Shown piece by piece: positions 12,533 to 31,540 of a stretch of DNA of 64,000 bases. Every line of letters begins with the position of its first letter. The first letter of the stretch is position 1. Below the pieces are notes generated by a model that was not told where the DNA came from, did no database searches, and saw only the letters and a program-made list of their open reading frames with translations. This stretch comes from Candidatus Acetothermia bacterium (lineage in GTDB: Bacteria; Bipolaricaulota; Bipolaricaulia; RBG-16-55-9; DRXL01). The translations under genes and the position numbers were made by a program. The DNA is taken from assembly GCA_016179105.1 (NCBI GenBank), contig JACOSB010000120.1:489-64488 (forward strand). The letters run 5' to 3'.

Positions 12533-12551
12533 GCTCGATTACAGTTAGGCC

Positions 12552-12779: not shown

Positions 12780-12805
12780 ACATTCGGAACTTAAAGGAGC
12801 CGGTG

Positions 12806-14326: not shown

Positions 14327-14344
14327 GCGTATTCACTAAAACTC

Positions 14345-14364: not shown

Positions 14365-14383
14365 CAATTCCTAAGGAGGAATC

Positions 14384-15163: not shown

Positions 15164-15221
15164 GCACACGGGTGAGCGTTGTGTCGAAAATAATACTTTA
15201 CTAGACGATAAGGAGGTCGCC

Positions 15222-17038
15222 ATGACGCATGTACGCGGAGTTGGTATCTGGCTGGCTGGGTTCGTCCTGGCACTCAGCAGTATGGCCACAACAAGTTGGG
15301 CGGCAGGCCAAGGACCATCCTTCAGCGTCCTTGTCGAGGAGCAAGCTTCAGGGTATCGCTTCTCGGTTCAAGCAGAGGACGTCACTTCAGTTCGGGTCGC
15401 CATCTTGCGCCTGGATGGTCGACGGGTCTTCCAGAGCGATTGGATCGTGGGTCCTACAGTCACCTGGCCGCTCGCAACATCATCCAATCAGACTCCCGCC
15501 CGCGGAGTCTATCTGTACGCGGTGAGCGCTCGCGATCAACACGACCGTGAGCAACGCAAACTGGGCAAGTTGGTCGTTTCCTTCGGAGCGGAGTCCTCAC
15601 TGAGCCTGCCTAGCTTGGACCAGTTAGCAGGGAGTCAGCCTTCGGCCCTTCCCAGCGGAGTGAAGTGGAAAGAGCTTTTAGGCAAAGACAGTTTGGACAA
15701 TTTCCGCATCCAGCGCCAGCCTGGCAAAGGGCAAGCTTTCCAAAACTTGCTCACGCTGGACAATGCCGGGAATTTGAGCGTGGCGCAACTCTGCTTGAGT
15801 GAAGTCTGCCTCGCGAGCTGGCCTAGTGGGGGAGGAGGCACTTTCACGTTAGCAGATGGGTCCGTCACGTTAGCCAAGCTGGCGAACCAGGACTGCGGGG
15901 CGGGCAACGCGATCCGGGGCTGGACCGGTGGAGTGTGCTGAACTGTGCCAGTCTTGGGGGCGGAGGGACACCCAGTGGCTGGGTCGATGACGGTACAGTC
16001 GTACGGTTGGCAGACGCAACAGACAAGGTCGGCATCGGGACGACGGGACCACAAAACTTACTAACTATCGGTCCAAATCCATCTGCTGCCTCCAATGCGA
16101 ATGAATTATTACAGTTGGCAAAGAACGAAGACGCATATATGACGATACGAGATGGAACTGCTACTGCTCTTTTGGGCACTACTAGCGGTCTTCCCTTCGT
16201 TGGTAGCCAATCGAATCATGACTTTACCATTCGCACGAACAATGCAGAGAAGGTCAGGATTACAACAAGCGGCAACGTCGGCATCGGGACTATTAGCCCC
16301 AATACGCGGTTGGAAGTGCAAGGCCCGGATACAAATCTTGACACGAAAGCCTTCAAGGTTAGCAACTCAATTGGCTTTGCCGGGTTGATCGTTTGGGACG
16401 ACGGAACTGTGCAAATCGGGACCCTTGTCGACAACCCGAAGACACAACATGCTTGCCTGACCCTCGGACTTTATTTCGCCACGTGCAGTTCCGCCGCCGA
16501 GTATGTTCCCACTGTTGATGAAGGACAGGGTTATCCCATCGCGGGTGATTTAGTCAGTATCGCGCCCACCCTCAAGAATCCGTATAGCGATGATCACGGT
16601 CCCTTCGTGGTCGCCAAGACGAACAAGCCCTGCGACGAGAATCTAATCGGATTTATTCTCGACCCCAAGTTGGGTGCTGACGGCAAGAAACTCAACGAGC
16701 ACTATATGCCGCTCGGCATCTACGGCTACTTCCCTGCGAAAGTCACGATGGAGAATGGGCCTATTAAGCGCGGCGATCCGATCACGTCCAGTTCCAAACC
16801 CGGCTACGGGATGAAAGCGACGCAAGCCTGCAAGATCATCGGCTATGCGCTCGAAGACGCGGACAAAGAAGGTACGATTCAAGTCTTCGCGCATCTGAGC
16901 GAGAATGCCGCACCGGAAGTGACGGCGCTGCGTGCGAAAGTGAGCGAATTAGAGCAAGCAAGAGCTCAGGAGAACGAGGAGTTCCGCAAGAGAATCGAGA
17001 CGCTAGAGAAGATCGTAGCAAGGCTCACGGCTAAGTGA
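15222..17038 (+). pseudogene. fibre-family protein (type I N-terminal Ig-like domain + IGTTxP repeats + family-A C-terminal domain + coiled coil) interrupted by a frameshift at ~15931-15941
   Basis: ORFs 15147..15941 and 15935..17038 are collinear with the intact paralog 17933..19756. The paralog has GWTGGVLNCISVGGGG; here GWTGGVC* is followed by LNCASLGGGG in another frame. Nucleotide alignment shows 2 extra nt (gtgtGCtgaactg vs gtgttgaactg). Confidence 0.6.
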
Positions 17039-17065
17039 TGTGAATGGCTTCGGGGCTTGGTGGGA

Positions 17066-17518
17066 TCATTGCGACTCGGCAAGCCCCCACATGCCCAGCC
17101 ACTGTATCCGTTTGGCTAGCGGCGCGTGACTCAAAGCTTTCACCAGCCGTTGGTCCGCCGTGATGAAGACCGCATCGCGCTGCTCAGCCAATGCCACATA
17201 CAAAGCATCGTAGACGCTGCGCTGGTAAACCCGAGCAATCTCCCAGGCGCTCTCCACAAGGGAAAGCGACGCATACAGCTGAATCGGAAAGGAAGTACGA
17301 ATATGACCAAGAACCTGCTGCACCTCCGACGGTGCAAGCTCCCCGAGCCTGTGCTTCTTCCAAAGGATATTGCCCAACTCGGCCACAATCAGATCTGGCG
17401 CGAGCAGACGGCTGTCCTCCTCGGCAGCGGCTTCCAAAAATTGTTCGGCTTGGCCGGAGAGAACTTCCGGCAGATACCATTTGATCGCCACGCTGGCATC
17501 CACGACGAAGCGCTTCAT
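17066..17518 (-). CDS. vapC: PIN-domain toxin VapC
   Basis: MKRFVVDASVAIKWYLPE... carries the conserved acidic residues of a PIN domain. Overlaps the upstream antitoxin stop by 4 nt. Confidence 0.8.
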   Translation of the reverse strand: MKRFVVDASVAIKWYLPEVLSGQAEQFLEAAAEEDSRLLAPDLIVAELGNILWKKHRLGELAPSEVQQVLGHIRTSFPIQLYASLSLVESAWEIARVYQRSVYDALYVALAEQRDAVFITADQRLVKALSHAPLAKRIQWLGMWGLAESQ

Positions 17519-17751
17519 CGGCGGCGGTCCTCGCGCAGCAAGTGGACGCTGTCGCTGAAGGTGCGGCCGGAGCGGGTGAGCTTGCGGCGGAGTCGGCGGG
17601 TGCCGGCGAGCGCCTCGTGGGCCGAATGTTTTACGGAATCTTCCAAGATCGCTCTCAACTCTTGTTGGAGCGAGCGATGCTGTCGGATGGCACGTTCTTT
17701 GAGAGTCTTCAGCACCTTGTCGGGTACATCACGTATTAAGATATTGGGCAC
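17515..17751 (-). CDS. vapB: VapB-type antitoxin (ribbon-helix-helix/FitA-like), probable GTG start
   Basis: N-terminus (M)PNILIRDVPDKVLKTLKERAIRQHRSLQQELRAIL is a typical RHH antitoxin. AAAGGA RBS sits 8 nt upstream of the GTG. The longer ATG-initiated ORF (to 17808) is also possible. Confidence 0.6.
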   Translation of the reverse strand: MPNILIRDVPDKVLKTLKERAIRQHRSLQQELRAILEDSVKHSAHEALAGTRRLRRKLTRSGRTFSDSVHLLREDRRR

Positions 17752-17769
17752 AGTAGGATTCCTTTCTGA

Positions 17770-17786
17770 TGCTATCACAATGATAG
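17770..17786. promoter_or_regulatory. perfect inverted repeat GCTATCA-caa-TGATAGC immediately upstream of vapB, candidate autoregulatory operator
   Basis: Seen directly in the sequence. TA operons are typically autorepressed via palindromes at the promoter. Confidence 0.4.
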
Positions 17787-17806
17787 CAAAGGCTTCTATG
17801 GGGAGC

Positions 17807-17913
17807 AAAGAACCAATCCATCGCCAGCGGAGTTTATCTGTATCGACTCACCCCGCGCGATCGAGACGGCAATGAAACTCAGAGCGAGCTACGCAAGCTC
17901 ATCATCTTAAAGT
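17807..17913 (+). pseudogene. 3' remnant (last ~35 codons) of a beta-helix/Ig-like paralog of gene 12806..14326, truncated by the vapBC insertion
   Basis: Nucleotide and protein match to 14208..14326. Remnant KNQSIASGVYLYRLTPRDRDGNETQSELRKLIILK* versus KDQSVAKGVYLYRLTARDRDGNEIHSELRKLIIENFFE*. Confidence 0.6.
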
Positions 17914-17932
17914 AAACCAAAGGAGGTACACC

Positions 17933-19756
17933 ATGGCGCGTGTACGCAGAATCAGCATCTTATTGGCTGGGTTCGTCTTGGCACTCAGTAGTGTGAGCAC
18001 GACAACCGGGGCAGCAGATCCAGCAGCATCCTTCAATGTCCTCGTCGAGGAGCAAGCCTCCGAGTATCGCTTCTCGGTTCAAGCAGAGGGCGTAACTTCA
18101 GTGCGGGTCGCTATCTTGCGCTTGGATGGTCGACAGGTCTTTCAGAGCGATTGGGTCGCGGGTCAGACGGTTATCTGGTCACTTGCTACATCATCAAACC
18201 AGACTCCTACCAATGGAGTCTATCTGTACGCGGTGAGCGCTCGCGATCATCAGGGCCGTGAGCAACGCAAACTGGGTAAGCTGGTCGTTTTCTTCGGAGC
18301 GGAGTCCTCACTGAGCCTGCCTAGCTTGGACCAGTTAGCAGGGAGTCAGCCTTCGGCGCTTCCCAGCGGAGTGAAATGGCAAGAGAAATTGGGCAAAGAT
18401 AGCGTGGATAATTTTCGGATTCAGCGTCAGCCTGGCAAAGGACAGTCTTTCCAGAATTTGCTCATGCTGGACAATGCCGGAAATTTGAGCGTGGCGCAAC
18501 TCTGCTTGAGTGGAGTCTGCTTCGCCAGCTGGCCGAGTGGCGGAGGAGGAACCTTCACGTTAGCAGATGGGTCCGTCACTTTAGCCAAGCTGGCGAACCA
18601 GGACTGCGGAGCGGGCAATGCGATCCGGGGCTGGACCGGTGGCGTGTTGAACTGCATCAGTGTCGGAGGTGGGGGAGGAGTGCCCAGCGGCTGGGTCGAT
18701 GATGGCACGGTCGTACGGTTGGCTAATGCGACGGAGAGTGTCGGAATCGGCACAAACATACCTACGTCACTCTTGCACTTGCGCAAGGACGTGCCGGCGG
18801 GCCTCGGTCCAACGCTGACCTTGTACAATGGCGGCGGCAGCGGAGGTGCGGCGGACTCCATAGACTTTTTCACCTACTCGTCCCCCACCCCAACTTCGCC
18901 CACGGCTCGGATCATGAGCATTGATGACGGCAGCTTCAGTAATCACCTGGCATTTTTCACCAGGATTCCAGGGGACAATGGCAATGCGCTGTTGGAGCGG
19001 ATGCGGATCGCTTCGAACGGCGATGTCGGCATTACTGGCAACGTCGGCATCGGGACTACTAGCTCCCCTGGTCTGCGCCTGGCAGTCGTCGGCAACATCG
19101 GCAACACTAGTATCTTGGGACTGAATGTCTATAACGAAGGCTTTGTACAAATTGGCACCCTTTATGGCTCCTCCACCTTGCACGCATGTTATAGCACCAT
19201 CTTGCCTTTCGCCTTCGCCGCGTGCAGCTCGGCCGCCGAGTATGTGCCATCCATTGACAACGGTGCGGGTTTTCCCGAAACCGCCGACCTTGTAAGCATC
19301 GCGCCCGCCGTCACTAATCCTTACGGCGACACGCACGGCCCTTTCACCGTCCAGAAATCCACCATGTCGTGCGATCCGAACCTACTCGGCTTTATCGTGA
19401 AACCCGAATCGGGCGCCAACGGCAAGAAACTGAACGACCACTATCTCCCGCTCGCCATCTATGGCTACTTCCCGGCCAAAGTCACGCTGGAGAATGGGCC
19501 CATCAAGCGCGGGGATCCGATCACGTCTAGTTCCAAGCCAGGCTACGGAATGAAAGCAACGCAAGCCTGCAAGGTCATCGGCTATGCGCTCGAAGACGCA
19601 GACAAAGAAGGCACGATCCAAGTCTTCGCGCATCTGAGCGAGAATGCTGCGCCGGAAGTTGCAGCACTGCGAGCGCAGGTGCAAGAGTTGAAACAACAAT
19701 TACAACAAGTGCTCAGCCAGATAGAGACAATGAAAACCAAGGAGGGATCACGATGA
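17933..19756 (+). CDS. secreted fibre-family protein, type I N-terminal FlgD-Ig-like domain, Gly-rich/IGTTxP repeats, family-A C-terminal domain (CSSAAEYVP...KRGDPITSSSKPGYGMKATQACK) and terminal coiled coil
   Basis: RBS aaaggagg. Signal peptide. Intact counterpart of the frameshifted gene, with which it shares >85% nt identity in long stretches. Confidence 0.75.
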   Translation: MARVRRISILLAGFVLALSSVSTTTGAADPAASFNVLVEEQASEYRFSVQAEGVTSVRVAILRLDGRQVFQSDWVAGQTVIWSLATSSNQTPTNGVYLYAVSARDHQGREQRKLGKLVVFFGAESSLSLPSLDQLAGSQPSALPSGVKWQEKLGKDSVDNFRIQRQPGKGQSFQNLLMLDNAGNLSVAQLCLSGVCFASWPSGGGGTFTLADGSVTLAKLANQDCGAGNAIRGWTGGVLNCISVGGGGGVPSGWVDDGTVVRLANATESVGIGTNIPTSLLHLRKDVPAGLGPTLTLYNGGGSGGAADSIDFFTYSSPTPTSPTARIMSIDDGSFSNHLAFFTRIPGDNGNALLERMRIASNGDVGITGNVGIGTTSSPGLRLAVVGNIGNTSILGLNVYNEGFVQIGTLYGSSTLHACYSTILPFAFAACSSAAEYVPSIDNGAGFPETADLVSIAPAVTNPYGDTHGPFTVQKSTMSCDPNLLGFIVKPESGANGKKLNDHYLPLAIYGYFPAKVTLENGPIKRGDPITSSSKPGYGMKATQACKVIGYALEDADKEGTIQVFAHLSENAAPEVAALRAQVQELKQQLQQVLSQIETMKTKEGSR

Positions 19757-21894
19757 GATTCAAGAATCGACGTTGGCTCTGGGTCGTGCTGTTGCTGCTC
19801 ATGGCGGTGAGAGCAGCGGCTGGCCAAGCTGCCTCTTTCCAAGTGCAAGTCGAGCAGCAAGCCTTGGGCATCCGCTTCACCGTGCAAGACGTGAACGTCA
19901 CTTCCATGCGAGTCGAAGTCGCGGGCTTAGACGGTAGAACAATCTTTGCGAGCGGATGGAAATCAGATCGGTCGGTAACCTGGCCCATGGTCACTCCGCA
20001 AGAGCGATCAGCAGCGAACGGAGTCTATCTGTACGAGATCGTATTACGCGATCACGAGGGACGTGAGTATCGCAAACTTGGCAAGCTAGCGCTCGTGCAG
20101 GGACAAGAGCCGGCATTCAGTATGTCTACAGTGGGCGAACTCGCGGGAACAGGACCTGCAGTGGCGCAGTTTCCCCTGACCGCGGGAACGAGTTGGAGTC
20201 AACGTTTGGGTATTGATCGGTCGGACACATACCGGATTCAACGTCGTCCACCTAGAGTGACTGGAGGGCCTCCAACGACTTTTGAAAACCTGCTCCAACT
20301 CGAGGCCGATGGAAAGCTTCGCATCAAAGCACTGTGTTTGGGAACAGTCTTTGCGCCGGTGACCCCTCAGAACCCGGACAATCTTTCTAACGAAGGAGAC
20401 TGTCGCAGCAGCTGGTCCGGCGTGACTGGTGGAGGTACGACGAACGGATGGACGGATGATGGCGCGATCGTGCGCTTGGCTAACGCAACAGACAAGGTCG
20501 GCATCGGGACGACGAATCCGACTGAACTCTTAACCGTAGCCGGCAATATCGATGCGACCGGACAGAAGAGCAAGATACGATTTCAGTATGATACGTTGGC
20601 CGATCTTCCTTCTGCGGCGACCTATCATGGGATGTTCGCCCATGTGCACGCGACGGGCAAAGCCTATTTCGCCCATGCCGGGCAGTGGGTTGCGTTGGCG
20701 AATGAAGGCAGCAGCGGAGGCGCCTCTGCATGGTCGCTCTCTGGAAATAGTGGAACGAATCCCAGTACAAATTTCTTGGGAACAACCAGCAATACTGCGC
20801 TCGTCTTCCGTACAAATAACTTGGAACGAATGCGTCTCAGTGAAAATGGTAGTATCGTCATCGGAACGAACACTCCTTGCGTAGGCCAGAGGTTGCAGGT
20901 TACCAAGTTCGCTTCAGGGCTCGGCTGCCCAGCCCCAGATCTTCTTGACGTAGCTATCTTCGCGGAGAACAAAGACGGGCGTGCTGTCGTCGGTCAAAGC
21001 GCCGATGATGCAGGCATCGAAGGCATAAGCAATAGCAGCGCTGGTGTCTCCGGGCTCAGCAAAAATGGCGCGGGAGTGAAGGGCGTCAGCGGAGAGGCCA
21101 TCGACATAGGTGAGCGTGAATCAGGCGTGGGTGTAGTGGGTATTAGTGTCTCCGAGCTAGGAGCTGGTGTCCTGGGCCTCAATCTCAATGGTGGCATAGG
21201 TGTACAAGGCGAGAGTGGAAAGAATTTTGGCGTTGCTGGCAAGAGCGAAGAGAAGAGTGGGGTGCTTGGCATCAGCACAATGGAGGCGGGGGTAGCAGGT
21301 GTAAGTACTAAGAATTACGGCATTGCCGGTGGCAGTATCGAGAGCACGGGCGTGTATGGGGAAAGTCAGAACGGGACATATATATTTGAGGGTTTTGATG
21401 GAAATACCAACAACCGACGTTTTGCCGTGGAGCGGGCTACGGGAAATGTCAAAGCGTATGGCACCTTCACCGGCGGCGGCGTGGACTATGCCGATATGCT
21501 TCCCGTCACGGGCAAGCTATCCGACTATGAGCCGGGCGACGTGCTTGTCATCAGCCTGGATGGAAAGTTAACGAAATCATGGCAGCCGTATTCAACGGCG
21601 CTTGCCGGAGTCTATTCTACGAAACCTGCTTTTGTGGGTGATTCCCGCGGACTCACAGAAGATAGCCGAGCGATGGATGAAAATCTGGTTCCCGTGGCGC
21701 TCGTCGGACTCGTGCCGGTGAAAGTGAGCGCCGAGAACGGTCCGATTCATCCCGGAGATTTGCTCACAACTGCGAGTATCCCCGGACACGCGATGAAAGC
21801 CACGGACCCGAAAATTGGGACAATTCTTGGCAAGGCAATGCAGTCTCTAGAAAAAGGCACCGGCGTGATCAATGTGCTGGTGACCTTGCGCTAA
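19753..21894 (+). CDS. secreted fibre-family protein, type II N-terminal Ig-like domain, GVxG-rich repeat region, family-B C-terminal domain (YEPGDVLV...PGDLLTTASIPGHAMKAT...VLVTLR)
   Basis: Start overlaps the previous stop (ATGA). Signal peptide MRFKNRRWLWVVLLLLMAVRAAAG. The N-terminal 230 aa are paralogous to gene 21921..23804. Confidence 0.75.
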   Translation: MRFKNRRWLWVVLLLLMAVRAAAGQAASFQVQVEQQALGIRFTVQDVNVTSMRVEVAGLDGRTIFASGWKSDRSVTWPMVTPQERSAANGVYLYEIVLRDHEGREYRKLGKLALVQGQEPAFSMSTVGELAGTGPAVAQFPLTAGTSWSQRLGIDRSDTYRIQRRPPRVTGGPPTTFENLLQLEADGKLRIKALCLGTVFAPVTPQNPDNLSNEGDCRSSWSGVTGGGTTNGWTDDGAIVRLANATDKVGIGTTNPTELLTVAGNIDATGQKSKIRFQYDTLADLPSAATYHGMFAHVHATGKAYFAHAGQWVALANEGSSGGASAWSLSGNSGTNPSTNFLGTTSNTALVFRTNNLERMRLSENGSIVIGTNTPCVGQRLQVTKFASGLGCPAPDLLDVAIFAENKDGRAVVGQSADDAGIEGISNSSAGVSGLSKNGAGVKGVSGEAIDIGERESGVGVVGISVSELGAGVLGLNLNGGIGVQGESGKNFGVAGKSEEKSGVLGISTMEAGVAGVSTKNYGIAGGSIESTGVYGESQNGTYIFEGFDGNTNNRRFAVERATGNVKAYGTFTGGGVDYADMLPVTGKLSDYEPGDVLVISLDGKLTKSWQPYSTALAGVYSTKPAFVGDSRGLTEDSRAMDENLVPVALVGLVPVKVSAENGPIHPGDLLTTASIPGHAMKATDPKIGTILGKAMQSLEKGTGVINVLVTLR

Positions 21895-21920
21895 CTCAAA
21901 GTGAGAAACAGGAGGAAACA

Positions 21921-23804
21921 ATGAATCAATTCACTCATAGAGTCGTCATGGCGTTGGCAACATTCGCTCTGGCGATCGCCACGGGCAGTGTTGGAACAGT
22001 CTTGACAGCCAAGGCAGCGGAAGCGATTTCTTCTTCTTCAGTTCTGATCGAGCAACAAGCCGCGGGCGTTCGCTTCTCAGTGCAAGACGAGAGCACCGTT
22101 GCGTTGCGGCTGGAAGTCTTGAGCTTGGATGGAAGAAGAATCTTCCAGAGCGAATGGCGACCAGACAAGACCGTGGTATGGTCAGCAGCTCTCATCACTG
22201 GACAAACCGTCGCAAATGGAGTTTATCTCTACGCAATCAGCGTGCGCGACCGGGAGGGACGCGAGCAAAGAAAGCTGGGCAAGTTGGTTCTGGTGCAGGG
22301 ACTGGAGCCGCGGCTGAGCATCCCAGCAGTGAGCGAGTTGGTCACAACAGAACCCGCAGCGGCACAGTTCCCCCTTACTGCGGGAACGAGTTGGAGCCAA
22401 CGATTGGGTATTGACCGGTCAGACACGTATCGGATTCTGCGCCGACCAGCGCGTGTACCCGGTGGACCTGTCACTAGCTTCGAGCAATTGCTCCAGCTCG
22501 GAGCCAATGGAAGGCTGCACATTACAGAACTATGTTTGGGTACAGTCTTTGCTCCGTTCACTGCTCAGAACCCGGACAATCTTTCTAACGGAGGAGACTG
22601 TCGCAGCAGCTGGTCGGGTGTGACGGGTGGAGGTACGTCGAACGGATGGACGGATGATGGTGCGATCGTGCGACTGGCTACCGCGAGCGATAAGGTCGGC
22701 ATTGGCACGACCACGCCAGCACAAGCACTGGAAGTAAACGGGATTGCTTCTTTGGGAGCCCCTGGAGGAGTCTATGGATACTTGTTTGCAGCTCCCTCGC
22801 CAGGACCCTACCCAACCCTCGGGTTTAACACCTATGGGGCACCTTTCTATCTGGCAGGAGTTGCGGGATATGGTGGTATCCTCCAGTTTCAGGATGGGGA
22901 TGGAAAGCTCATTTACTATACCGGCTCGAACGTGGCTGCAGGAGCAGCACATGTCAATACCCCACGATTCGCGATAGATAAGGACGGCAACGTCGGAGTC
23001 GGCACCACCACCCCGACCGCGAAACTTTCGGTTCAGACCGGGACAGGCTTTTATGGCTTCATCCACACCGATGGCGCCATTGTTGTAGGTTCGTATGTGG
23101 GGGGCAGCGCGTCAGGTGCCGTCGGCGGGTGGCTTGGCACCAAGTCGAATCACCAACTTCACTTCTTCACCAACAACGGCCAGCCCAGCATGACGATCGA
23201 CACCGCTGGCAGAGTGGGTATCGGGACGTTCAGCCCGAGTGCCACGCTGGATGTCAACGGGGGCATCCAGGCTAATAGCTTGACGGCGCCGGCGGGTCTG
23301 TTCCTGAACGCCTCGACCGGCCGCATCGCCCTGCGGACGACGACTGGGGGGCTGTTTGCGGAGCGGATGACGATCCTGGACAACGGCAATGTCGGCATCG
23401 GCACCACCAGTCCCACAAACCCCTTACAGATGGGCAGTGGTGCATTCGTCTCCGCTGGAGGCATCTGGACCAATGCGTCAGACCGTAACCTGAAGGAGCA
23501 CTTCACTCCGGTGGACAGTTACACCGTGCTGAAGACACTGGCTGCGCTCCCCATCACCGCTTGGAATTACAAGACGGAAGGAGCTTCCATCCAGCATATT
23601 GGCCCGGTAGCGCAGGACTTCTATGCCGCGTTCAAGTTGGGACAGGACAACAAGCACATCAGCACGATTGACGCGAACGGAGTGGCACTGCTCTCGATCC
23701 AGGCGCTCTATGAGCTGAGCTTGGAGAAAGACAAACAGATCGAGGATTTGCAGCAGCGTATCGAGAAGCTGGAGAAGCTTGTGGAGATGTTGACAAAGAA
23801 ATAA
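21921..23804 (+). CDS. secreted fibre-family protein with tail-fibre-like IGTTxP beta-helical repeats and C-terminal Peptidase_S74 intramolecular chaperone (auto-processing) domain
   Basis: C-terminus SDRNLKEHFTPVDSYTVLKTLAALPITAWNYKTEGASIQHIGPVAQDFYAAF...ELSLEKDKQIEDLQQRIEKLEKL matches the chaperone-of-endosialidase/S74 consensus (SDxxxK...IGxxAQ...coiled coil). N-terminal Ig-like GVYLY domain and signal peptide are present. Confidence 0.75.
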   Translation: MNQFTHRVVMALATFALAIATGSVGTVLTAKAAEAISSSSVLIEQQAAGVRFSVQDESTVALRLEVLSLDGRRIFQSEWRPDKTVVWSAALITGQTVANGVYLYAISVRDREGREQRKLGKLVLVQGLEPRLSIPAVSELVTTEPAAAQFPLTAGTSWSQRLGIDRSDTYRILRRPARVPGGPVTSFEQLLQLGANGRLHITELCLGTVFAPFTAQNPDNLSNGGDCRSSWSGVTGGGTSNGWTDDGAIVRLATASDKVGIGTTTPAQALEVNGIASLGAPGGVYGYLFAAPSPGPYPTLGFNTYGAPFYLAGVAGYGGILQFQDGDGKLIYYTGSNVAAGAAHVNTPRFAIDKDGNVGVGTTTPTAKLSVQTGTGFYGFIHTDGAIVVGSYVGGSASGAVGGWLGTKSNHQLHFFTNNGQPSMTIDTAGRVGIGTFSPSATLDVNGGIQANSLTAPAGLFLNASTGRIALRTTTGGLFAERMTILDNGNVGIGTTSPTNPLQMGSGAFVSAGGIWTNASDRNLKEHFTPVDSYTVLKTLAALPITAWNYKTEGASIQHIGPVAQDFYAAFKLGQDNKHISTIDANGVALLSIQALYELSLEKDKQIEDLQQRIEKLEKLVEMLTKK

Positions 23805-23870
23805 GTGAGGCTTCAGAGAACAAGAGCTGAGATGAGAAGGGCCGGGCAGCGTTCGCTTGGCCCTGTTTGC

Positions 23871-23898
23871 GTAGGGGCGAGGCATGCCTCGCCCCTAC
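23871..23898. repeat. GTAGGGGCGAGG-catg-CCTCGCCCCTAC palindromic element (bidirectional terminator-like) between convergent genes
   Basis: Perfect 12-bp stem hairpin; member of the family also at 10564, 31571, 32798, 40419 and 51377. Confidence 0.6.
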
Positions 23899-23906
23899 GG
23901 GACCAA

Positions 23907-26900
23907 TCATTCTGTGCTCGTGTCTAACGCATACTCGATCGCCTGCTCGAGCGTCAGTGATTGACCTTGGGTCCAGGCAGCTGCAAAAACTTTCTCCTCA
24001 AGCTTCTCACGGATTGTAGCTACAGTGCGATCAAAAGCAGCGCGATTGGTCGGCGGCAAAGAAGCACGCATGGCCCCGCGCAGAGCCGCGACGGCTCCGC
24101 AAAGATGAGCAGCGCGCACAAGCTGACCTTGGGCGAGCGAAACCACTCCCGTCCCTTCGAGTAAGAACGCGATGTTCCATTTATCTCGCAACTCCCGTTG
24201 CAAGAGTAGTCCCTCTTCATAGAGCGCATGAGCGGATGCATAATCACTTTGTTTTAGGGCAACACTGCCCAGATTATTGAGAGAGTTGGCGAGGCCCGGC
24301 TTGTCTCCTAGCTCACGACGTAAAGCCAGACTTTTTTCATAGAGCGTTCGCGCTGTTTGGTAGTCCCCTTGATTCTCTGCTACACTCCCCAAGTTGTTGA
24401 ACAAATAAGAGATGGCTTGTTTGTTCCCCAACTTTGTGTTGATCTCGAGGCTCTCTTCATAGAATGCTTTGGCTTGCGTATACTCACCCTGGGCTCGCGC
24501 GATGAGCCCTAAATTGTTGAGCAAGATAGCAATGCCGGCGGCGTCTCCTAATTTACGAGAGAGATTCAAGCCCTCCTCAGAGAGGGAGCGCGCCCGTGTA
24601 TACTCACCCTGCTTCCAGGCGATCGACCCCAAATTCTGAAGAGTTTTTGCCATGTCTCTCTCGCCTCCCAGACCTCGAAAGATCGCTAGACTTTCTTCGT
24701 GATAAGAACGTGCTGTGAGATAATCTCCTTGTCCTTCAGCCAGAGTGCCGGCCGCGTTGAGCGCCTTGGCACTCGTGATAGTCCTCTTGAGACTCCCGGC
24801 CTGTGCAAGGACAGAAGCCACTTGTGATCGCCCTTCTGTGAGATAGCCGCGAACAAGCCAGAAAGCACTGAGTGCGGTTACCATGCGCAACCCAGCTTCC
24901 GTTTTTCTTCTATCTTTGGCATATTCGAGTGCACTGCGCAGATTGTCTTGCTCTTGCTCCAATCGCTCCAGCCAGCTGGATTGAGCGGGCCCCTGCAGTT
25001 CGGACTCTGCTTTTTCTGCCAGAGCAAGGAACCAATCAAGATGGCGCTCGCGCAAGACCGATTCTTCTTTGGAATCAAGAAGTTTCTCCCGACCGAACTG
25101 GCGCACGGTCTCTAGCAGGCGATACCGTGTCTCTCCGTCTCGCTGATCCACAAGCACTAGCGACTTGTCTATGAGGTGAGTCAGTAAATCCAAAATTTCT
25201 GTAAGGGCGATTCGTGAATCGCCCTTACGAAGATCATCTCTTGCACAGATCGTCTCTACGGCCTCCAACGTAAACCCGCCCGCGAAGATAGACAACCTGC
25301 GCAGCAATGTTTGCTCAGCGGATGAGAGCAGATCGTAGCTCCAGTCCATCGCAGCCTGTAGAGTTTGTTGTCGCGGAAGCGCCGTCCGGCTGCCGCTCGT
25401 GAGCAACCGGAAGCGATCGTCCAGCCGCGCCGCGATCTCTGTGACAGACAAAACTTTCACGCGTGCCGCCGCGAGCTCGATGGCCAAGGGCAAGCCATCC
25501 AGCTTCTGGCAGATCTGCATCACCGCAGGGGCATTTTGTAGGTTCAATCCAAATTCCGGTTGACTAGAGAGTGCCCGCTCGACGAATAAGCTTATAGCTT
25601 CGTATTGTTTTAAAATCTTCAAAGGCAAGGAATCGTGAGCGTCGGGCTGCACGAGCGGAGGCACTTGCCAAACCGTCTCTCCTGCGATGCCCAGCGCCTC
25701 ACGGCTCGTGGCCAAGACCTGAAGATCTGGGCAGGTGTGCAATAGAGTCTCTGTCATGTGCGCACAGGCACTGATCAAGTGCTCACAATTGTCTAGAACC
25801 AGGAGCATTTGTTTGGATTTTAGATAGTCTGAGAGTGCGTCTGTCAACGAACATTGCTGTGTCTCGCGCACTCCCAAGGCAGACGCGATGGCTTGCGGGA
25901 CGAGCTTTGGGTCGGAGATGGATGCCAATTCTACCCACCAGACTCCATCCGAGTAGTCTTTCACCATACTTGCGGAAACTTGCAACGCGAGGCGTGTCTT
26001 GCCGCTGCCCCCGGCTCCAGTGAGAGTAAGTAATCTCGTCGTGTTGAGTAACCATTTCACTTTGACAATCTCGCGCTCGCGCCCGATGAAGCTGGTCACA
26101 GAGCTGGGCAGATTGTGCCGTGCCGGACTCGCGGGCGGCGGGTAGCCTTGGCTGGAACGCTCTCCACGCACAATCTGCTCGTGCAATGTGCACGTCTCGG
26201 GCGACGGTTTTGCACTCAAGTGCTCTTCCATTACTTTGGCACACTCGGCATAAACTTGCAGTGCTTCGCTGTGCTGCCCTGCGAGCGAGTGATAGAGCAT
26301 CTGCTGGCGATAGACGCTCTCGCGTGTGAGCTCTTGTTTCAAGATTTTTCCGCATTGTTCGAGTGCTTGTGGATACTGCCCCAGACGCGCATGGCATTCG
26401 GCGCATTGCGAAAGCGCGGTCAGATAGAGCTCTCGCCAATGTTGACGCGGGCTGAGCGTCCACTCTTCATAAAGGTCTTCGGCCAAGAAATCACCCTGAT
26501 AGAGATCGAGAGCTTGGCGATATGTGTCCAATGCTTCCGGCCAGCGCCCGGCTCGTTCTGAGGCTTGGGCAGTCTCCATCTTCTTTTGGAATTCTTCGGT
26601 GTCGAGCCAACAGGAAGAATCTTTGCTAAAAGAATATCCACCCTGGCGCTTACTCACGATGTAGTGTGAGTCCAAGCTCTTGTCAAGATTAGGCTCTAAT
26701 GCGTGGCGCAGTTCTCCGATGCGTCCGTAGAGATTCTTCGCGGCTTTCGCGGGCTCAAGGTCGGGAAAGAGTGCTTCGATCAGTTGGTCCGGGCTGAAGA
26801 TTTTTCCCCGGTCGGTGAGCAGGATTTTCAAGAGCGACAACGTCTTGTGGCGCCCCCAGGCTTGGGCAGGGACGAGCGCATCCTCACGCCAGACTTCAAA

Positions 26901-26978
26901 GCGACCAAACAGCTTGACCCGGAGTCCTTTGGTGCTCGTCCCGCTCATGAGATACTCCCATCGCCCTGCTGCGCTCAT
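23907..26978 (-). CDS. AfsR/SARP-family STAND transcriptional regulator (wHTH + BTAD + NB-ARC ATPase + TPR array), paralog B
   Basis: Collinear with paralog A at about 45-50% identity. Walker A LTGAGGSGKTRLALQV. At least 8 C-terminal TPR repeats (QGEYxxA...EESLxI...LGN). Divergent from fibre genes 27089 onward. Confidence 0.8.
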   Translation of the reverse strand: MSAAGRWEYLMSGTSTKGLRVKLFGRFEVWREDALVPAQAWGRHKTLSLLKILLTDRGKIFSPDQLIEALFPDLEPAKAAKNLYGRIGELRHALEPNLDKSLDSHYIVSKRQGGYSFSKDSSCWLDTEEFQKKMETAQASERAGRWPEALDTYRQALDLYQGDFLAEDLYEEWTLSPRQHWRELYLTALSQCAECHARLGQYPQALEQCGKILKQELTRESVYRQQMLYHSLAGQHSEALQVYAECAKVMEEHLSAKPSPETCTLHEQIVRGERSSQGYPPPASPARHNLPSSVTSFIGREREIVKVKWLLNTTRLLTLTGAGGSGKTRLALQVSASMVKDYSDGVWWVELASISDPKLVPQAIASALGVRETQQCSLTDALSDYLKSKQMLLVLDNCEHLISACAHMTETLLHTCPDLQVLATSREALGIAGETVWQVPPLVQPDAHDSLPLKILKQYEAISLFVERALSSQPEFGLNLQNAPAVMQICQKLDGLPLAIELAAARVKVLSVTEIAARLDDRFRLLTSGSRTALPRQQTLQAAMDWSYDLLSSAEQTLLRRLSIFAGGFTLEAVETICARDDLRKGDSRIALTEILDLLTHLIDKSLVLVDQRDGETRYRLLETVRQFGREKLLDSKEESVLRERHLDWFLALAEKAESELQGPAQSSWLERLEQEQDNLRSALEYAKDRRKTEAGLRMVTALSAFWLVRGYLTEGRSQVASVLAQAGSLKRTITSAKALNAAGTLAEGQGDYLTARSYHEESLAIFRGLGGERDMAKTLQNLGSIAWKQGEYTRARSLSEEGLNLSRKLGDAAGIAILLNNLGLIARAQGEYTQAKAFYEESLEINTKLGNKQAISYLFNNLGSVAENQGDYQTARTLYEKSLALRRELGDKPGLANSLNNLGSVALKQSDYASAHALYEEGLLLQRELRDKWNIAFLLEGTGVVSLAQGQLVRAAHLCGAVAALRGAMRASLPPTNRAAFDRTVATIREKLEEKVFAAAWTQGQSLTLEQAIEYALDTSTE

Positions 26979-27088
26979 TATACGCCAGTTTGCTCGAAAT
27001 CGCCGCCATCCGGAAGAAGGGTGTGACCTAACTGTAACCTTCTTCTTCTATGCTCAATGCAATGGAGAAATCCCAAGGAGGGATCAAG

Positions 27089-29227
27089 ATGAACGTCAAG
27101 AATTCACTGAAGCTCTTGGTCGTCCTGTCGCTGTTAGCTTTCTCAACAGCGGTGGCAGCTCAACCGGTGTCGTCGTTCCACGTGTTTGTGGAAAAACAAG
27201 CTTCCAATTATTTCTTCTCAGTGCAGGGAGAGAACGTCGCGTCCACACGAGTGGAGGTTTTGGGTCTAAACGGTAGGCCGATCTTTGATAGCGGATGGAT
27301 ACTGGGGCAGACGGTGGCTTGGCCGCTGATGACTCTTAATGGGCAACCTGCCGCCAATGGAGTCTATCTCTATGCAATCAGCGTAAGAGATCAGCAGGGT
27401 AAGGAACAGCGCAAGCTGGGCAAACTGGCAATCGTGCAGGGGCTGAAGCTGTTGTTGAGCACGCCTGACGTGGACGATCTGGTTCAGGTCCAGCCGATGG
27501 CTTCGGGGGCGCAATGGAAAGAGCGTCTGGCAAAGGATGGACAAGATAATTTTCGGATTCTGCGCAATGGTGCTGCGCTACTGACCCTGGACAGTAGCAG
27601 CCGACTGACGGTGGCTCAGCTTTGCTTGGCGGGAGATTGTCGCAACGTCTGGCCCGCAGGCGGAGGTCCCACTCTCGCCTGGTTGCTCAGCGGCAACGCG
27701 GGTACCACGGCAGGCACGAACTTTTTGGGAACTACGGACAATGTCGCTCTGGAACTGAAAGTGAACAGCCAGCGCGCGCTGCGCATTGAGCCTGGTTCGA
27801 CACCCAATCTCATCGAAGGCTTTAGCGGCAACTTTGCTGGCGCGGGCGTAGTCGGCGCCGCTATCGGCGGCGGCGGAGCCAACGGCACCAATAATCGAGT
27901 GCTCGACGATTTTAGTACGATCGGCGGGGGATTGAATAACCAGGCGGGTGATGGCAATGGATCCACAGCAGACCACGAGTTGGCGACCGTCGGCGGAGGA
28001 GCAGGCAACCAAGCCACCGGTAATAATTCTACCGTGGGTGGAGGTCTAGGGAACACTGCCAGCGGTGGTTTCTCCACGATTCCCGGGGGGATGTTCAACA
28101 CAGCCTTGGGTGATTTCAGCTTTGCCGCAGGCCGACGTGCCAAGGCTAACAATCAGGGCAGCTTCGTCTGGGCTGATAATTCAGTCGATGCTGACTTCGC
28201 TTCCACAGCAGACAATCAGTTCCTTATTCGCGCGAGTAAAGTCGGCATCGGCACGACGACGCCTGGGTATAAATTGGACGTCAACGGGGTCGGGCGCTTC
28301 CAGGGCTTAGAGGGCGGAGCGTCCAGCGGCGCAGGAGTAGAGATCCAGTATGGCAATGTGGGTGGAGCAACCCGCGGTATCGTCTTTGCGTTTGACCGGT
28401 CGGCAGGAGCTCCCCGAGATTTGCTCTTAAACCACCCCGGCGGCAATGTCGGCATTGGCACGACCAGCCCCAGTGCCGGGCTAACTGTCCGTGACGTAAA
28501 TCCCAGCGCCTTGAACTTTGTCTTTCGAATAGAAGACTCGACTGGGGCTCAACTATTCGCGGTCGACGACATCGGACGCGCAGGGACGAAAAGCGGCTTC
28601 ACCGTTGGTGCCTTCGCGCCAGCCACGACTACTCACGTTTGTCGCACCACCGCTCCGCCAAGCGGCCCGGGCATATTGGCCGAGTGTTCATCGGCAGCAG
28701 AGTATGTCCCCACTGTGGAAGATAGCAATGGATATCCCGAAACCGGAGATCTGGTGCGCGTTCTGCCCTCAGTCAAAAATCCCTTCGGAGATAAACACTC
28801 ACCTTTCGTCGTAACCAAGACCAGCAAGCCGTGCGATAGCGATCTATTGGGTTTCTTGCTCAAGCCCGAGCTGGGAGCAGATGGTCCGAAGTTGAACGAA
28901 CACTATCGGCCGCTCGCGATCTTCGGCTACTTTCCCGCCAAAGTGACTATGGAGAACGGGACTATTAAGCGAGGCGATCCGATCACGTCGAGCTCTAAGC
29001 CCGGCTACGGCATGAAAGCGACCCAAGCGTGCAAGATCATCGGTTATGCGCTCGAAGATGCAGATAGAGAAGGAACGATTCAGATCTTCGCGCACTTGAG
29101 CGAGAGTGCAGCGCCGGAAGTGACGGCGCTCCGAGCGCAAGTGCAAGAGCTGCACCAACAATTGCAACAAGTACTGAGCCAGTTGGATGCGATCAAAGCC
29201 AAGGTAGGGTCAACACCGATAAAGTAA
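27089..29227 (+). CDS. secreted fibre-family protein, type III N-terminal Ig-like domain, YadA-head/Hep_Hag-like Gly-rich repeats, family-A C-terminal domain and coiled coil
   Basis: RBS aaggaggg 6 nt before the ATG at 27089 (the ORF could also start at 27050). Signal peptide MNVKNSLKLLVVLSLLAFSTAVAA. Its C-terminus is near-identical at nucleotide level to those of genes 15222..17038 and 17933..19756. Confidence 0.75.
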   Translation: MNVKNSLKLLVVLSLLAFSTAVAAQPVSSFHVFVEKQASNYFFSVQGENVASTRVEVLGLNGRPIFDSGWILGQTVAWPLMTLNGQPAANGVYLYAISVRDQQGKEQRKLGKLAIVQGLKLLLSTPDVDDLVQVQPMASGAQWKERLAKDGQDNFRILRNGAALLTLDSSSRLTVAQLCLAGDCRNVWPAGGGPTLAWLLSGNAGTTAGTNFLGTTDNVALELKVNSQRALRIEPGSTPNLIEGFSGNFAGAGVVGAAIGGGGANGTNNRVLDDFSTIGGGLNNQAGDGNGSTADHELATVGGGAGNQATGNNSTVGGGLGNTASGGFSTIPGGMFNTALGDFSFAAGRRAKANNQGSFVWADNSVDADFASTADNQFLIRASKVGIGTTTPGYKLDVNGVGRFQGLEGGASSGAGVEIQYGNVGGATRGIVFAFDRSAGAPRDLLLNHPGGNVGIGTTSPSAGLTVRDVNPSALNFVFRIEDSTGAQLFAVDDIGRAGTKSGFTVGAFAPATTTHVCRTTAPPSGPGILAECSSAAEYVPTVEDSNGYPETGDLVRVLPSVKNPFGDKHSPFVVTKTSKPCDSDLLGFLLKPELGADGPKLNEHYRPLAIFGYFPAKVTMENGTIKRGDPITSSSKPGYGMKATQACKIIGYALEDADREGTIQIFAHLSESAAPEVTALRAQVQELHQQLQQVLSQLDAIKAKVGSTPIK

Positions 29228-29377
29228 ACTGGAATGAAAGCAAAAAACTCACTGGGCCGGGCAAGCTCTGCTCGGCTCCTGTGATTTTCTGGTAGCTGGG
29301 TGCTGGAGCAGCTAACCTGAAGTCGAGCGATCGAGTTGGAACCAAGCGATTGGGGAAATCCCAAAGGAGGGGTCAAG

Positions 29378-31540
29378 ATGAAAGTCAAGAATTCACTCAA
29401 GTTGTGGGTCGTCCTGTCGCTGTTAGCCGTTTCGACAGCAGTGGCCGCAGGACAAGCGTCGTCGTTCCAAGTGCTCGTGGAGGAGCAAGCTTCCAGTTAC
29501 CTCTTCTCGGTACAAGGAGAGAATGTCACCTCCACGCGATTGGAGATTTTGGGCTTAAACGGTAGGCCGATCTTCGACAGCGGATGGATACTGGGGCAGA
29601 CGGTGGCATGGCCGCTGGTGACTCCGACTGGACGACCCGCCGCCAATGGAGTTTATCTCTATGCGATCGGCGTGCGAGATCAGAAGGGCAAAGAAGAGCG
29701 CAAACTGAGCAAACTGGCAATTTTTCATGAGCTACAAGCCTCACTGAGCGTTCCGAGCATAGGCGAAATATCTCAAATTGGGCCATCGGCTCTCCCGGCT
29801 GGAGTGAAGTGGCAAGAGAAGTTGGGCAAAGATAGCGTAGACAATTTTCGGATTCAGCGCCGCCCAGGCAACGGGCAGCCTTTCCAAGACTTGCTGATCC
29901 TAGACAATGCCAGTCGACTGACAGTAGCTCAGATCTGTCTGGCCGGCGACTGCCGCAACGTCTGGCCGGGAGGTGGAGGACCCACTCTGGCCTGGTTGCT
30001 CACCGGCAATGCGGGTACTACAGCGGGCACCAACTTCTTGGGCACAACCGATAACCAGCCGCTTGAGATGCGCGTGAACAACCAGCGGGCGCTGCGCATT
30101 GAGCCGAATGCGACGAGCCCCAACTGGATCGGGGGCTTCAGCGGTAACTCTGTCCGCGCGGGCGTGGCCGGTGCCACAATCGGCGGTGGCGGAAGCGGAG
30201 ATGTTGGAAGAATAAATAAAGTTTTAGAGGAATTTGGCACGGTGAGCGGAGGCTTTGACAATACAGCTGGCGCTGCCTGGGCCACCGTGGGCGGGGGCGC
30301 TGGCAACACCGCCAGCGGCACTCAGGCCACGGTGGGCGGAGGCTTTAGCAACACAGCCAGCGCTCTCGCTCTCTCGGCCACAGTGGGCGGGGGAGGGTTC
30401 AACACAGTCAGCAACGGGTATGCCACCGTGGGCGGAGGCTTCACTAACACCGCCGGCGGCCAGTTTGCCACGGTGGGCGGGGGCAAGAACAATACAGCCC
30501 CCGAGACCAGTTCCACAGTAGGTGGTGGGTTCGGCAACGGGGCAACCGGCCTAGACTCTATAGTGGGCGGAGGCAACCAAAACACGGCGGGCGCTTCTTG
30601 GGCCACCGTGGGCGGGGGCAAGATCAACACGGCTCTTGGCATCAGTTCCACTGTAGGCGGCGGCTTCTCCAATGCGGCCAGCGGCCTTGATTCCACAGTG
30701 CCCGGAGGCCACCAAAACTTCGCCCAGGGGAATTACAGTTTTGCTGCAGGGTTTAGAGCCAAAGCTAACGATCAAGGTGCTTTCGTCTGGGCCGATTCCA
30801 CCGACGCGGATTTCACCTCTACCGCGGCCAATCAGTTCAGTGTACGCGCGAACGGTGGTGCCCGCTTCATCACTCAGCTTTCTACTCCTACCTTTACTTT
30901 AGCGGCTCTCCAGGTGGAGACCGGCGCCACTGGCGGTGAAGCCGCCTGGTTGCGCATAACGAGTTCGGCCAATCCCCAACCGGTCATCAAGCTGCTCAAG
31001 CATCCGAGCGGTACCAATAACTTCCTAGAATGCAGTAATTTCGACAGCACCACCGAGACCACCAAGTGTCATATCAATAAAGATGGTGCCTTCGTGGCGG
31101 GCTCCGACTTTGCCGAATCGCTCCCAGCCAAAGACGGTAAAGCGAACTATGAGCCAGGAGATGTGCTCGTCCTCAGTGTAGATCGACCGGGAGCAGTCCA
31201 GAAGTCAAACCAGCCTTACGATCCAAGAGTGGCGGGCGTCTATTCGACACGGCCTGCGGTGCTGGGTGCCGAAAAGGGCGGAGGAGAGACGCGAGTGGAC
31301 CCTAACGAAATCCCGGTGGCCATCGTGGGGATCGTGCCCGTGAAGGTGACGGCCGAGAATGGAGAGATTCAGCCCGGCGACTTGCTGACAACGTCTAGCG
31401 TGCCCGGCTATGCCATGAAAGCGAAAGCGGTCGTAGTCAATGGGATTGCGATCTATCCCACGGGAACGATCCTGGGGAAGGCTGTGGAGCCGCTGAAAAG
31501 CGGGGCGGGTGTCATCAAAGTGTTGGTGATGCTGCGCTAG
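29378..31540 (+). CDS. secreted fibre-family protein, type III N-terminal Ig-like domain, >12 tandem ATVGGGFxNTAxG (Hep_Hag-like) repeats, family-B C-terminal domain
   Basis: RBS aaaggagggg. The signal peptide and N-terminal 220 aa are about 80% identical to gene 27089..29227. The C-terminal domain is paralogous to that of gene 19753..21894. Confidence 0.75.
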   Translation: MKVKNSLKLWVVLSLLAVSTAVAAGQASSFQVLVEEQASSYLFSVQGENVTSTRLEILGLNGRPIFDSGWILGQTVAWPLVTPTGRPAANGVYLYAIGVRDQKGKEERKLSKLAIFHELQASLSVPSIGEISQIGPSALPAGVKWQEKLGKDSVDNFRIQRRPGNGQPFQDLLILDNASRLTVAQICLAGDCRNVWPGGGGPTLAWLLTGNAGTTAGTNFLGTTDNQPLEMRVNNQRALRIEPNATSPNWIGGFSGNSVRAGVAGATIGGGGSGDVGRINKVLEEFGTVSGGFDNTAGAAWATVGGGAGNTASGTQATVGGGFSNTASALALSATVGGGGFNTVSNGYATVGGGFTNTAGGQFATVGGGKNNTAPETSSTVGGGFGNGATGLDSIVGGGNQNTAGASWATVGGGKINTALGISSTVGGGFSNAASGLDSTVPGGHQNFAQGNYSFAAGFRAKANDQGAFVWADSTDADFTSTAANQFSVRANGGARFITQLSTPTFTLAALQVETGATGGEAAWLRITSSANPQPVIKLLKHPSGTNNFLECSNFDSTTETTKCHINKDGAFVAGSDFAESLPAKDGKANYEPGDVLVLSVDRPGAVQKSNQPYDPRVAGVYSTRPAVLGAEKGGGETRVDPNEIPVAIVGIVPVKVTAENGEIQPGDLLTTSSVPGYAMKAKAVVVNGIAIYPTGTILGKAVEPLKSGAGVIKVLVMLR

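Follow-up and report, generated by a model that had tools for sequence, protein, structure and literature searches.

The DNA analyzed here is a 64-kb window of a 65.2-kb contig from a metagenome-assembled genome (MAG) named 'Candidatus Acetothermia bacterium' (locus tags HYR54_126xx). It contains six paralogous genes, hereafter g1 to g6, which all lie on the plus strand between positions 15222 and 31540, as a preliminary description of this DNA had laid out, and which encode proteins built like phage tail fibers (Table 1). We describe the modules of these proteins and the evidence for recombination of their heads, shafts and tails, both among the paralogs and between nearly identical strains.

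Each fiber protein starts with a Sec-type signal peptide (read by eye), followed by an Ig-like beta-sandwich of the type seen in type IX secretion system (T9SS) C-terminal domains and in FlgD, a linker and a neck, a variable shaft and a C-terminal module. The neck ends in the motif 'GW.DDG..VRLA...VGIGT', and the shafts hold 'VGIGT' and GGG-N-A-G repeats; those of g1, g3 and g4 match PHROG tail-fiber families, and NCBI names g4 a 'tail fiber domain-containing protein'. The C-terminal modules were confirmed as originally assigned, with family A in g1, g2 and g5, family B in g3 and g6 and Peptidase_S74 in g4. A coiled-coil tail of one of two types, alpha or beta, is present in four of the six genes (g1, g2, g4 and g5) and in neither of the family-B genes. 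The only Pfam and NCBIfam matches to the fibers are Peptidase_S74 in g4 and sub-threshold matches of T9SS type. From these features, the proteins are predicted to be exported by the Sec pathway and are probably trimeric.

The start of g3 overlaps the stop of g2 (ATGA), and its ribosome-binding site (RBS) and first codons are type III-like, resembling those of g5 and g6. In the shaft of g6, positions 30197-30718 hold degenerate 45-nt repeats (15-aa 'ATVGGG..N.A.G..S') and a 135-nt tandem duplication (1.9 copies, 76% match), which resemble the beta-roll repeats of YadA heads or tail fibers and have no Pfam match. The first gene, g1, had been taken for a single open reading frame (ORF), but it is split in two, 15222..15941 and 15935..17038, by a 2-nt 'GC' insertion at ~15937-15938. 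Since an independent assembly has the same insertion (position 6198 of strain contig L089), the frameshift is no one-off sequencing error.

Table 1. The six fiber genes, the segments that differ between strains, and neighboring features (window positions).
Feature	Position	Strand	Modules, boundaries and evidence
g1	15222..17038	+	Type I head, own shaft, family-A tail, alpha-type coiled coil; frameshifted; Ig-like domain 15318-15596, family-A domain 16472-16918, conserved block 16682-16936
g2	17933..19756	+	Type I head, family-A tail, beta-type coiled coil; Ig-like domain 18017-18307, family-A domain 19208-19657, conserved block 19421-19675
g3	19753..21894	+	Type II linker and neck, family-B tail 21460-21891
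g4	21921..23804	+	Type II head, fiber shaft, Peptidase_S74 23421-23801, alpha-type coiled coil
g5	27089..29227	+	Type III head, shaft of YadA-head-like GGG-N-A-G repeats, family-A tail 28670-29119, beta-type coiled coil; conserved block 28883-29137
g6	29378..31540	+	Type III head, repeat shaft, family-B tail 31085-31537
g1 head segment differing between strains	15282..15821	+	80/147 L089 mismatches
g2 head segment differing between strains	18090..18619	+	61/147 L089 mismatches
g4 part replaced in HY230 contig L090	22702..23804	+	
Regulator 1, SARP/STAND type	9127..12312	-	Trans_reg_C + BTAD + NB-ARC + TPR (Pfam)
Secreted right-handed beta-helix protein	12776..14326	+	Beta_helix and NosD matches
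Secreted 259-aa protein	14384..15163	+	C-terminal Ig-like domain 14957-15154 (BLASTP E 6e-8; tblastn)
VapBC-like toxin-antitoxin pair between g1 and g2	17066..17808	-	Pfam, ORFs
Beta-helix gene relic immediately 5' of g2, comprising the 3' end of the Ig-like domain	17793..17912	+	tblastn
Regulator 2	23907..26978	-	Trans_reg_C + BTAD + NB-ARC + TPR (Pfam)

The decisive evidence for recombination comes from strain comparisons, and not from the conserved 3' block to which we return below. Contigs of the assemblies HY009 (GCA_016196055.1) and HY230 (GCA_016201315.1) match the window at 99.5-100% identity over kilobases, apart from discrete patches. Like all genomes compared in this work, these are MAGs; an exact look-up of g2 matched no contig, and related contigs were reached via homologs and cluster members. 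Across window positions 13377-19969 (6.6 kb), HY230 contig L089 shows 147 mismatches, 141 of which fall into two head segments, 15282-15814 in g1 and 18090-18619 in g2, with 6 elsewhere. The g1 head segment of the window is 96.3% identical to the copy at the g2 position of L089 and 85.0% identical to its positional ortholog, and the two strains show a crossed pattern at 34 sites and a strain-specific pattern at none. Outside the head patch, the orthologs of the window and L089 are 97-100% identical. The head difference between g1 and g2 is a recent ectopic exchange of ~540 nt between tandem paralogs. The g1 head was thus exchanged between strains despite the frameshift in this gene.

The shaft and the tail of g4 are replaced in a second comparison. 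HY230 contig L090 has no mismatch to the window from position 20366 to a 37-nt insertion at 22702, in the 'VGIGTT' neck of g4; divergence then amounts to 7.5% over 22718-23227 and is followed by an unrelated shaft, and the gene ends in a family-B tail instead of Peptidase_S74. The same contig carries one extra fiber gene between the g4 position and regulator 2. At the g5 position, HY009 contig L085 is 100% identical to the window for the first 300 nt and continues as a different mosaic from ~27430-27470, after the Ig-like domain, with patches that are 95% identical to g6 and 88-90% identical to g2. HY009 (L086/L085) also has a 127-nt deletion that splits g4 (23134-23260) and a 210-nt deletion in regulator 2 (26457-26666), each between short microhomologies (GGC and TGAG). 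The HY009 and HY230 contigs carry g3 with 99.8-100% identity to the window. The breakpoints coincide with junctions between modules, namely the end of the Ig-like domain, the neck motif and the interior of the autochaperone. The comparison across strains, which the preliminary description had recommended, therefore reveals heads, shafts and tails replaced between near-identical strains.

As every sequence is a MAG contig, we considered an artifact of assembly or binning, in which chimeric contigs switch between paralogs or co-existing strains at shared k-mers. Contigs L001, L085, L086 and L090 end inside fiber genes, as is typical when assembly breaks at repeated or variable sequence, and the g1/g2 head patch has one of its boundaries within a stretch of ~96% identity between these paralogs. 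A simple switch between paralogs, however, predicts about 100% identity to the other copy in both directions, where we observe 96.3% and 88.1%, and the replaced segments of g4 and g5 have no donor in the window closer than 73-95%. No two window paralogs share an exact repeat longer than 66 nt, or longer than 29 nt in the 3' block; reading frames continue through the junctions, the breakpoints match domain boundaries, and the gene order recurs in three to four independent assemblies. We regard this explanation as highly unlikely. Collapsed repeats, a danger raised in the preliminary description, are likewise not what the locus contains, because the copies differ by 11-19% and share no more than those 66 nt exactly.

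Within the window, the six genes group differently from one segment to the next. The heads associate g1 with g2 and g5 with g6. In the linker, g6 is nearer to g1 and g2 than to g5 (g2-g6 up to 85%, g5-g6 51-63%) and includes a type I-like patch at ~29800-29860 that is 93% identical to g2, and in the neck g1 is nearer to g3 than to g2 (32-nt exact match). The tails group g1, g2 and g5 together, g3 with g6, and leave g4 by itself, and the coiled coils associate g1 with g4 and g2 with g5; with the related contigs included, all four combinations of a family-A or Peptidase_S74 module with an alpha or beta coiled coil exist. Runs of concordant sites exceed those of permutations for g1-g2, g1-g3 and g3-g4 (P 0.0002-0.0006), and the pairwise homoplasy index (PHI) test yields P = 0.001. 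Divergence is thus not uniform along the genes, and these tests, the incongruent segments and the strain differences together bear out the proposal that recombination swaps heads and tails among the fiber paralogs. The N-terminal pairs proposed earlier (g1/g2, g3/g4 and g5/g6) hold as pairs, but the 'type II' unit is shared only from the linker onward: there g3 and g4 are 72-85% identical in amino acids, with windows of up to 97% in nucleotides, whereas their Ig-like domains are 52% identical and no closer than those of g3 and g6.

Mosaic similarity extends to more distant contigs. The shaft of g2 is 92% identical to L001 over 18701-18994 (windows of 87-98%), where the flanking genes are 79-85% identical, and a 204-nt segment of g2 (19013-19216) is 95% identical to L003_622, with a 104-nt exact match and adjacent segments at 32-56%. 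A tract common to L003 and L004 is 92-96% identical, and the heads of the two are 50-65% identical. Across contigs, the genes combining a type I head and a family-A tail give P = 0.0002 in run tests and P = 0.001 in the PHI test.

The 3' block of the family-A genes had been put forward as the sign of recent gene conversion. It is indeed much better conserved than the gene bodies, but far from nearly identical, as the 255-nt copies are 81-89% identical to each other. Between g1 and g2, the block is 89.0% identical in nucleotides, with a synonymous divergence (dS) of 0.49 and a longest exact match of 29 nt; the corresponding values are 83.5%, 0.94 and 17 nt for g1-g5 and 81.2%, 1.19 and 14 nt for g2-g5. 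The g1 and g2 blocks are 84-85.5% identical (dS 0.72-1.00) to that of L001, which belongs to another species, and 82-84% identical (dS 0.61-1.15) to those of Anaerolineae and Binatia MAGs, whose contigs have nothing else in common with the window. The g5 copy is thus no closer to g1 and g2 than copies from other genomes are, and both this comparison and the synonymous divergence contradict recent conversion of the block within the genome.

Nonsynonymous divergence (dN) within the 85 codons of the block is 0.03-0.08, and we attribute its conservation to strong purifying selection on one half of a putative folding and trimerization domain. Judged from these sequences, the block represents the second half of the autochaperone domain, held by constraint, and no recent conversion tract. 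At conserved amino acids, codon identity between g1 and g2 is 0.74 in the block and 0.76 in the N-termini. The g5 block reaches 0.58 against g1 and 0.55 against g2, not significantly different from the adjacent half-domain (0.46), with 0.38 expected by chance; it is therefore conserved mainly at the protein level. Since the dS of the g1-g2 block equals that of their N-termini (about 0.4-0.5), the block fits the same age as the heads, with a single duplication whose middle was replaced later.

Constraint accounts well for this block, and one might extend it to the whole family, as old duplicates that never recombined recently and whose uneven similarity stems from differing selection on a conserved head and autochaperone and a fast-evolving shaft. 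The low dN of the block, its nucleotide identity equal to that of copies in other species and phyla, and the codon identity of the g5 block close to that of the neighboring segment fit such a view, and the combinations of type I with A, type II with B and type II with S74 recur in L004, so they are old. We nevertheless give it very little credence, because the strain comparisons already contradict it. Constraint predicts neither the concentration of 141 of 147 mismatches in two homologous 540-nt patches with crossed site patterns, nor a g4 that is free of mismatches up to its 37-nt insertion and then takes another shaft and another tail family, nor a g5 that turns from complete identity over 300 nt to unrelated sequence. 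Moreover, homologous heads carry non-homologous tails (S74 versus beta-tulip).

Families A and B, which had been described as separate modules, are homologous and represent two subtypes of a single domain (BLASTP E 1e-11 to 1e-15). This A/B domain forms the last 150-190 residues of g1, g2, g3, g5 and g6, and sits 21-190 residues from the C-terminus among 89 related proteins. Our A2 profile matches the beta-tulip base of the phi29 head fiber gp8.5 (E 6e-4). Searches of PDB sequences with single sequences and with profiles missed phi29 gp12; it was found only by fold search, and the A/B beta-tulip fold is superposable on the gp12 C-terminal fragment. No annotation existed for this beta-tulip domain, which is a relative of the phi29 gp12 D4 autochaperone and of Peptidase_G2. 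The tandem beta-tulips of gp12 D4 are described as an autochaperone needed for trimer assembly (bioRxiv 10.1101/216911).

The link to Peptidase_G2 is transitive only: the A2 profile matches the cluster representative P0202 with E 2.6e-44, and P0202 scores 37.1 bits against a Peptidase_G2 cut-off of 25. Among seven representatives scanned with Pfam, P0202 lies above and P0179 just at the Peptidase_G2 cut-off, and P0228 lies above that of Phage_cement_2. Unlike gp12 D4, Peptidase_G2 and the beta-tulip cement proteins (Phage_cement_2 / DUF2190), the window domains have no Pfam match to these families at E <= 0.1. The domain-start motifs are VDYADM (g3) and SDFAES (g6) in family B, and ADYAEYF and YDFAEMF in remote homologs. 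Family A differs from gp12 D4 and Peptidase_G2 in its C-S-S-A-A-E-Y motif, in which a near-invariant Cys precedes S-A-A-E and the Asp of D-[YF]-A-E is missing, and in the coiled-coil tail that follows the domain. The gp12 cleavage site could not be aligned to the A/B domain by sequence.

An exhaustive search with the A2 profile returned 23,230 cluster representatives, 10,886 of them at E <= 1e-10. A GTDB scan confirmed 270 A/B-domain loci in GTDB species of several phyla, with related domains mostly in Patescibacteria, Elusimicrobia and Gammaproteobacteria MAGs, and IMG/VR yielded two weak matches. Many proteins matched by the profile are giants of 1,500-5,700 aa with tandem copies. Members of the series P0157-P0236, such as P0179, P0202 and P0228 (620-768 aa), have two tandem A/B-like beta-tulips, each preceded by D-[YF]-A-E; these three end in Pro/Glu-rich tails, matched in P0179 and P0202 by Pfam extensin-like families. 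The whole family-A domain of g2 (window 19165-19684) is 82% identical in nucleotides to positions 10001-10450 of L005, a contig of an Anaerolineae MAG, and its first half is 85% identical to L005 and 61-66% identical to its own paralogs, a likeness that hints at a cross-phylum transfer of the module or at mis-binning.

The tail of g4 is of the endosialidase type, which is also found in the ICA domain of MYRF. Residues 520-571 match Peptidase_S74 (PF13884) with 40.9 bits against a cut-off of 22 (E 2.5e-10), and the domain starts with the motif S520-D-R-N-L-K525 (23478-23495), which places a Ser and a Lys five residues apart and is followed by helices, as in these chaperones. This spacing is that of MYRF S578/K583 and of the endosialidase dyad (PMC3742443). 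The g4 module is predicted to be an intramolecular chaperone and may be released by autoproteolysis. In contrast to the known chaperones of this type, S74 occurs in one of the six paralogs here and is swapped for an unrelated beta-tulip in a near-identical strain; the family-B tail on that strain's g4 makes S74 and beta-tulip chaperones interchangeable in one gene. On homology, all three tails would belong to one functional class, the C-terminal folding and trimerization modules of phage-type fibers.

The locus is flanked by regulators and by genes that share modules with the fibers. Regulator 1 is divergent from the first fiber operon, a synteny kept in L001 and L089, and regulator 2, with 49% identity to regulator 1, is divergent from g5-g6. 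A shorter BTAD/Trans_reg_C regulator without the NB-ARC and TPR parts (46721-47635, minus strand, 304 aa) lies 15 kb downstream of the fiber genes and adjoins an ABC transporter operon. Between regulator 1 and the beta-helix gene lies a small conserved ORF (12552-12779, plus strand; 61 aa from an internal Met, MSFIVRF...), which is also called in L001 (2610-2795) and L089 (2993-3178). The window is 90-93% identical to L089 over 9538-13013, which covers regulator 1 and the start of the beta-helix gene, and ~99.9% identical over the adjacent 13076-15281; a further recombination block boundary thus lies at ~13013-13076. The beta-helix protein is shorter in L089 (384 aa versus 516 aa).

The C-terminal domain of the beta-helix protein (14108-14308) is homologous to the fiber Ig-like domain (BLASTP 36% identity, E 6e-15), and the 259-aa protein has CHU_C, FlgD_ig and Por_Secre_tail matches, all sub-threshold. 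The Ig-domain relic upstream of g2 is 82% identical in nucleotides to 14207-14308, and in L004 a beta-helix gene stands directly 5' of a fiber gene. Because of this relic and this adjacency, we suggest that g1 and g2 may derive from a duplicated unit of beta-helix and fiber genes, the second beta-helix gene having been lost. The VapBC-like pair between g1 and g2 comprises a PIN toxin (17066..17518; Pfam PIN E 2.8e-14) and an RHH antitoxin (17515..17808), and L089 carries the same pair, with a FitA-like_RHH match. We scanned most ORFs of at least 150 aa across the window, and those not mentioned so far encode helicases, transporters, peptidases, a family-4 glycosyltransferase and similar proteins. 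Scans for tandem repeats and for promoters and terminators gave nothing decisive, and our literature search found no description of such loci in Acetothermia.

This gene context bears on whether the genes are tail fibers of a prophage, a tailocin or an extracellular contractile injection system (eCIS), with the exchange that is ordinary for receptor-binding proteins. The PHROG matches of the shafts and the NCBI name of g4 would suit such an origin, as would C-terminal modules of the two known chaperone types of phage fibers and spikes. The scanned ORFs, however, include no phage structural gene, be it capsid, portal, terminase, sheath, tube or baseplate, and all fibers carry a signal peptide of Sec type, dispensable for a virion protein. 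Their N-terminal domain is common to secreted beta-helix proteins and not to baseplate adaptors, the A/B domain is almost absent from IMG/VR, and synteny of the locus is kept in a relative whose flanks are 79-85% identical. We rejected an origin from a prophage or eCIS as very improbable on gene context: the six paralogs form a cluster on the chromosome, with regulators on its flanks.

One might invoke a mechanism dedicated to variation, be it a diversity-generating retroelement (DGR) or a site-specific invertase or shufflon, for the strong localized variability of putative binding proteins, and in L003 the fiber paralog is flanked by mobile-element genes (toxin-antitoxin modules, an integrase fragment and a Y1 transposase). 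The scanned window ORFs include no reverse transcriptase, invertase or recombinase, though, a direct-repeat search found no pair of template and variable repeats, and all paralogs lie on the same strand. Furthermore, the exchanged segments are hundreds of nucleotides long, contain all substitution types and end in homologous junctions. We rejected this mechanism on the missing enzymes, the missing template repeat and the single gene strand, and see next to no chance that it operates here.

Taking together the observed module architecture, homologies, fold, mosaic breakpoints and strain differences, we consider it likely that the six genes encode Sec-exported, phage-tail-fiber-like modular proteins whose heads, shafts and tails recombine into mosaics. 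The conserved modules (head, neck and autochaperone) and their junctions would act as homology handles, at which homologous recombination would replace heads, shafts and tails, including by non-reciprocal, gene conversion-like exchange. Partners may be paralogs, whether tandem or dispersed, and alleles that circulate among strains of the population; the genes would become mosaic, and strains would come to differ rapidly. Specificity would reside in the shaft, and all fibers would dock through the shared N-terminal Ig-like domain and fold with the help of the C-terminal one. By inference, the system varies an exported fibrous structure; trimerization, autocleavage and export are predicted, and the pay-off would come from variation of a surface or adhesive structure.

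Several points weigh against this interpretation. Chimeric assembly or mixed-strain consensus in MAGs could mimic some of the exchanges, and the g1/g2 head swap is the most exposed to chimerism because one of its boundaries lies in the ~96% identical stretch mentioned above. Rate heterogeneity can inflate the permutation tests of concordant runs. L003 and L004 stem from the same MAGs as strain-level contigs and are therefore perhaps other loci of the same species, or they may be co-binned relatives, which makes donor-recipient relations uncertain. The frameshifted g1 is a (conserved) pseudogene or requires frameshifting. With respect to the tails, no window protein matches Peptidase_G2 (PF11962) at E <= 0.1, and family A is without the Asp of the domain-start motif, so that its autocleavage is at most predicted from homology.

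The closest parallel is with phage receptor-binding proteins (tail fibers and tailspikes), in which, as in the window genes, a conserved attachment module at the N-terminus precedes a variable shaft or binding part and a chaperone at the C-terminus; also shared are breakpoints at module junctions, non-congruent combinations of heads and tails, and the tail-fiber motifs in the shafts. The window genes differ in being chromosomal tandem paralogs under BTAD/NB-ARC/TPR regulators, with Sec-type signal peptides and with virion and tail genes missing from the scanned ORFs of their locus, and their N-terminal module is an Ig-like domain common to secreted beta-helix proteins. We read the locus as a variant of the modular exchange known from these phage proteins, carried by secreted, chromosomally encoded paralogs with an unannotated gp12-D4-like domain.

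Antigenic variation by gene conversion from cassettes is known from Neisseria pilE/pilS and Borrelia vlsE. As in these systems, variable segments are replaced between conserved flanks from homologous copies elsewhere in the genome, which would create strain-level surface diversity. In contrast to them, each window copy is a complete gene equipped with an RBS and a signal peptide and not a silent cassette, we see no evidence of a programmed or high-frequency mechanism, and the donors include alleles outside the window. The fiber Ig-like domain also departs from T9SS sorting domains (Por_Secre_tail / CHU_C) and FlgD Ig-like domains, as it is N-terminal, right after the Sec leader, and its Pfam and NCBIfam scores are all below the cut-offs, which argues against a T9SS C-terminal sorting domain. 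No T9SS is known from Acetothermia.

Our data also carry a caution for genome scans, since a conserved block common to paralogs can be a constrained domain and no conversion tract, and strain comparison separates the two. They further reveal two unrelated folding modules, Peptidase_S74 and a gp12-D4-like beta-tulip, that are interchangeable on one gene between strains with flanks of 99.5-100% identity, and they provide a structural and functional lead for a very large domain family without a Pfam match. They would extend the recombining modular architecture of phage receptor-binding proteins to a chromosomal secreted protein family of an uncultured phylum. More tentatively, and with considerable doubt, the locus could be a cellular surface-fiber variation system, in which fibers and beta-helix enzymes share an Ig-like docking domain, chaperone modules double as recombination handles, strains re-assort very fast and STAND-type regulators exert control. 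If so, surface fibers would vary, for instance, to change partner or substrate recognition or to escape phages, and a beta-tulip family of more than 23,000 sequence clusters, found in tandem in giant candidate phyla radiation (CPR) proteins, would serve both folding and recombination.

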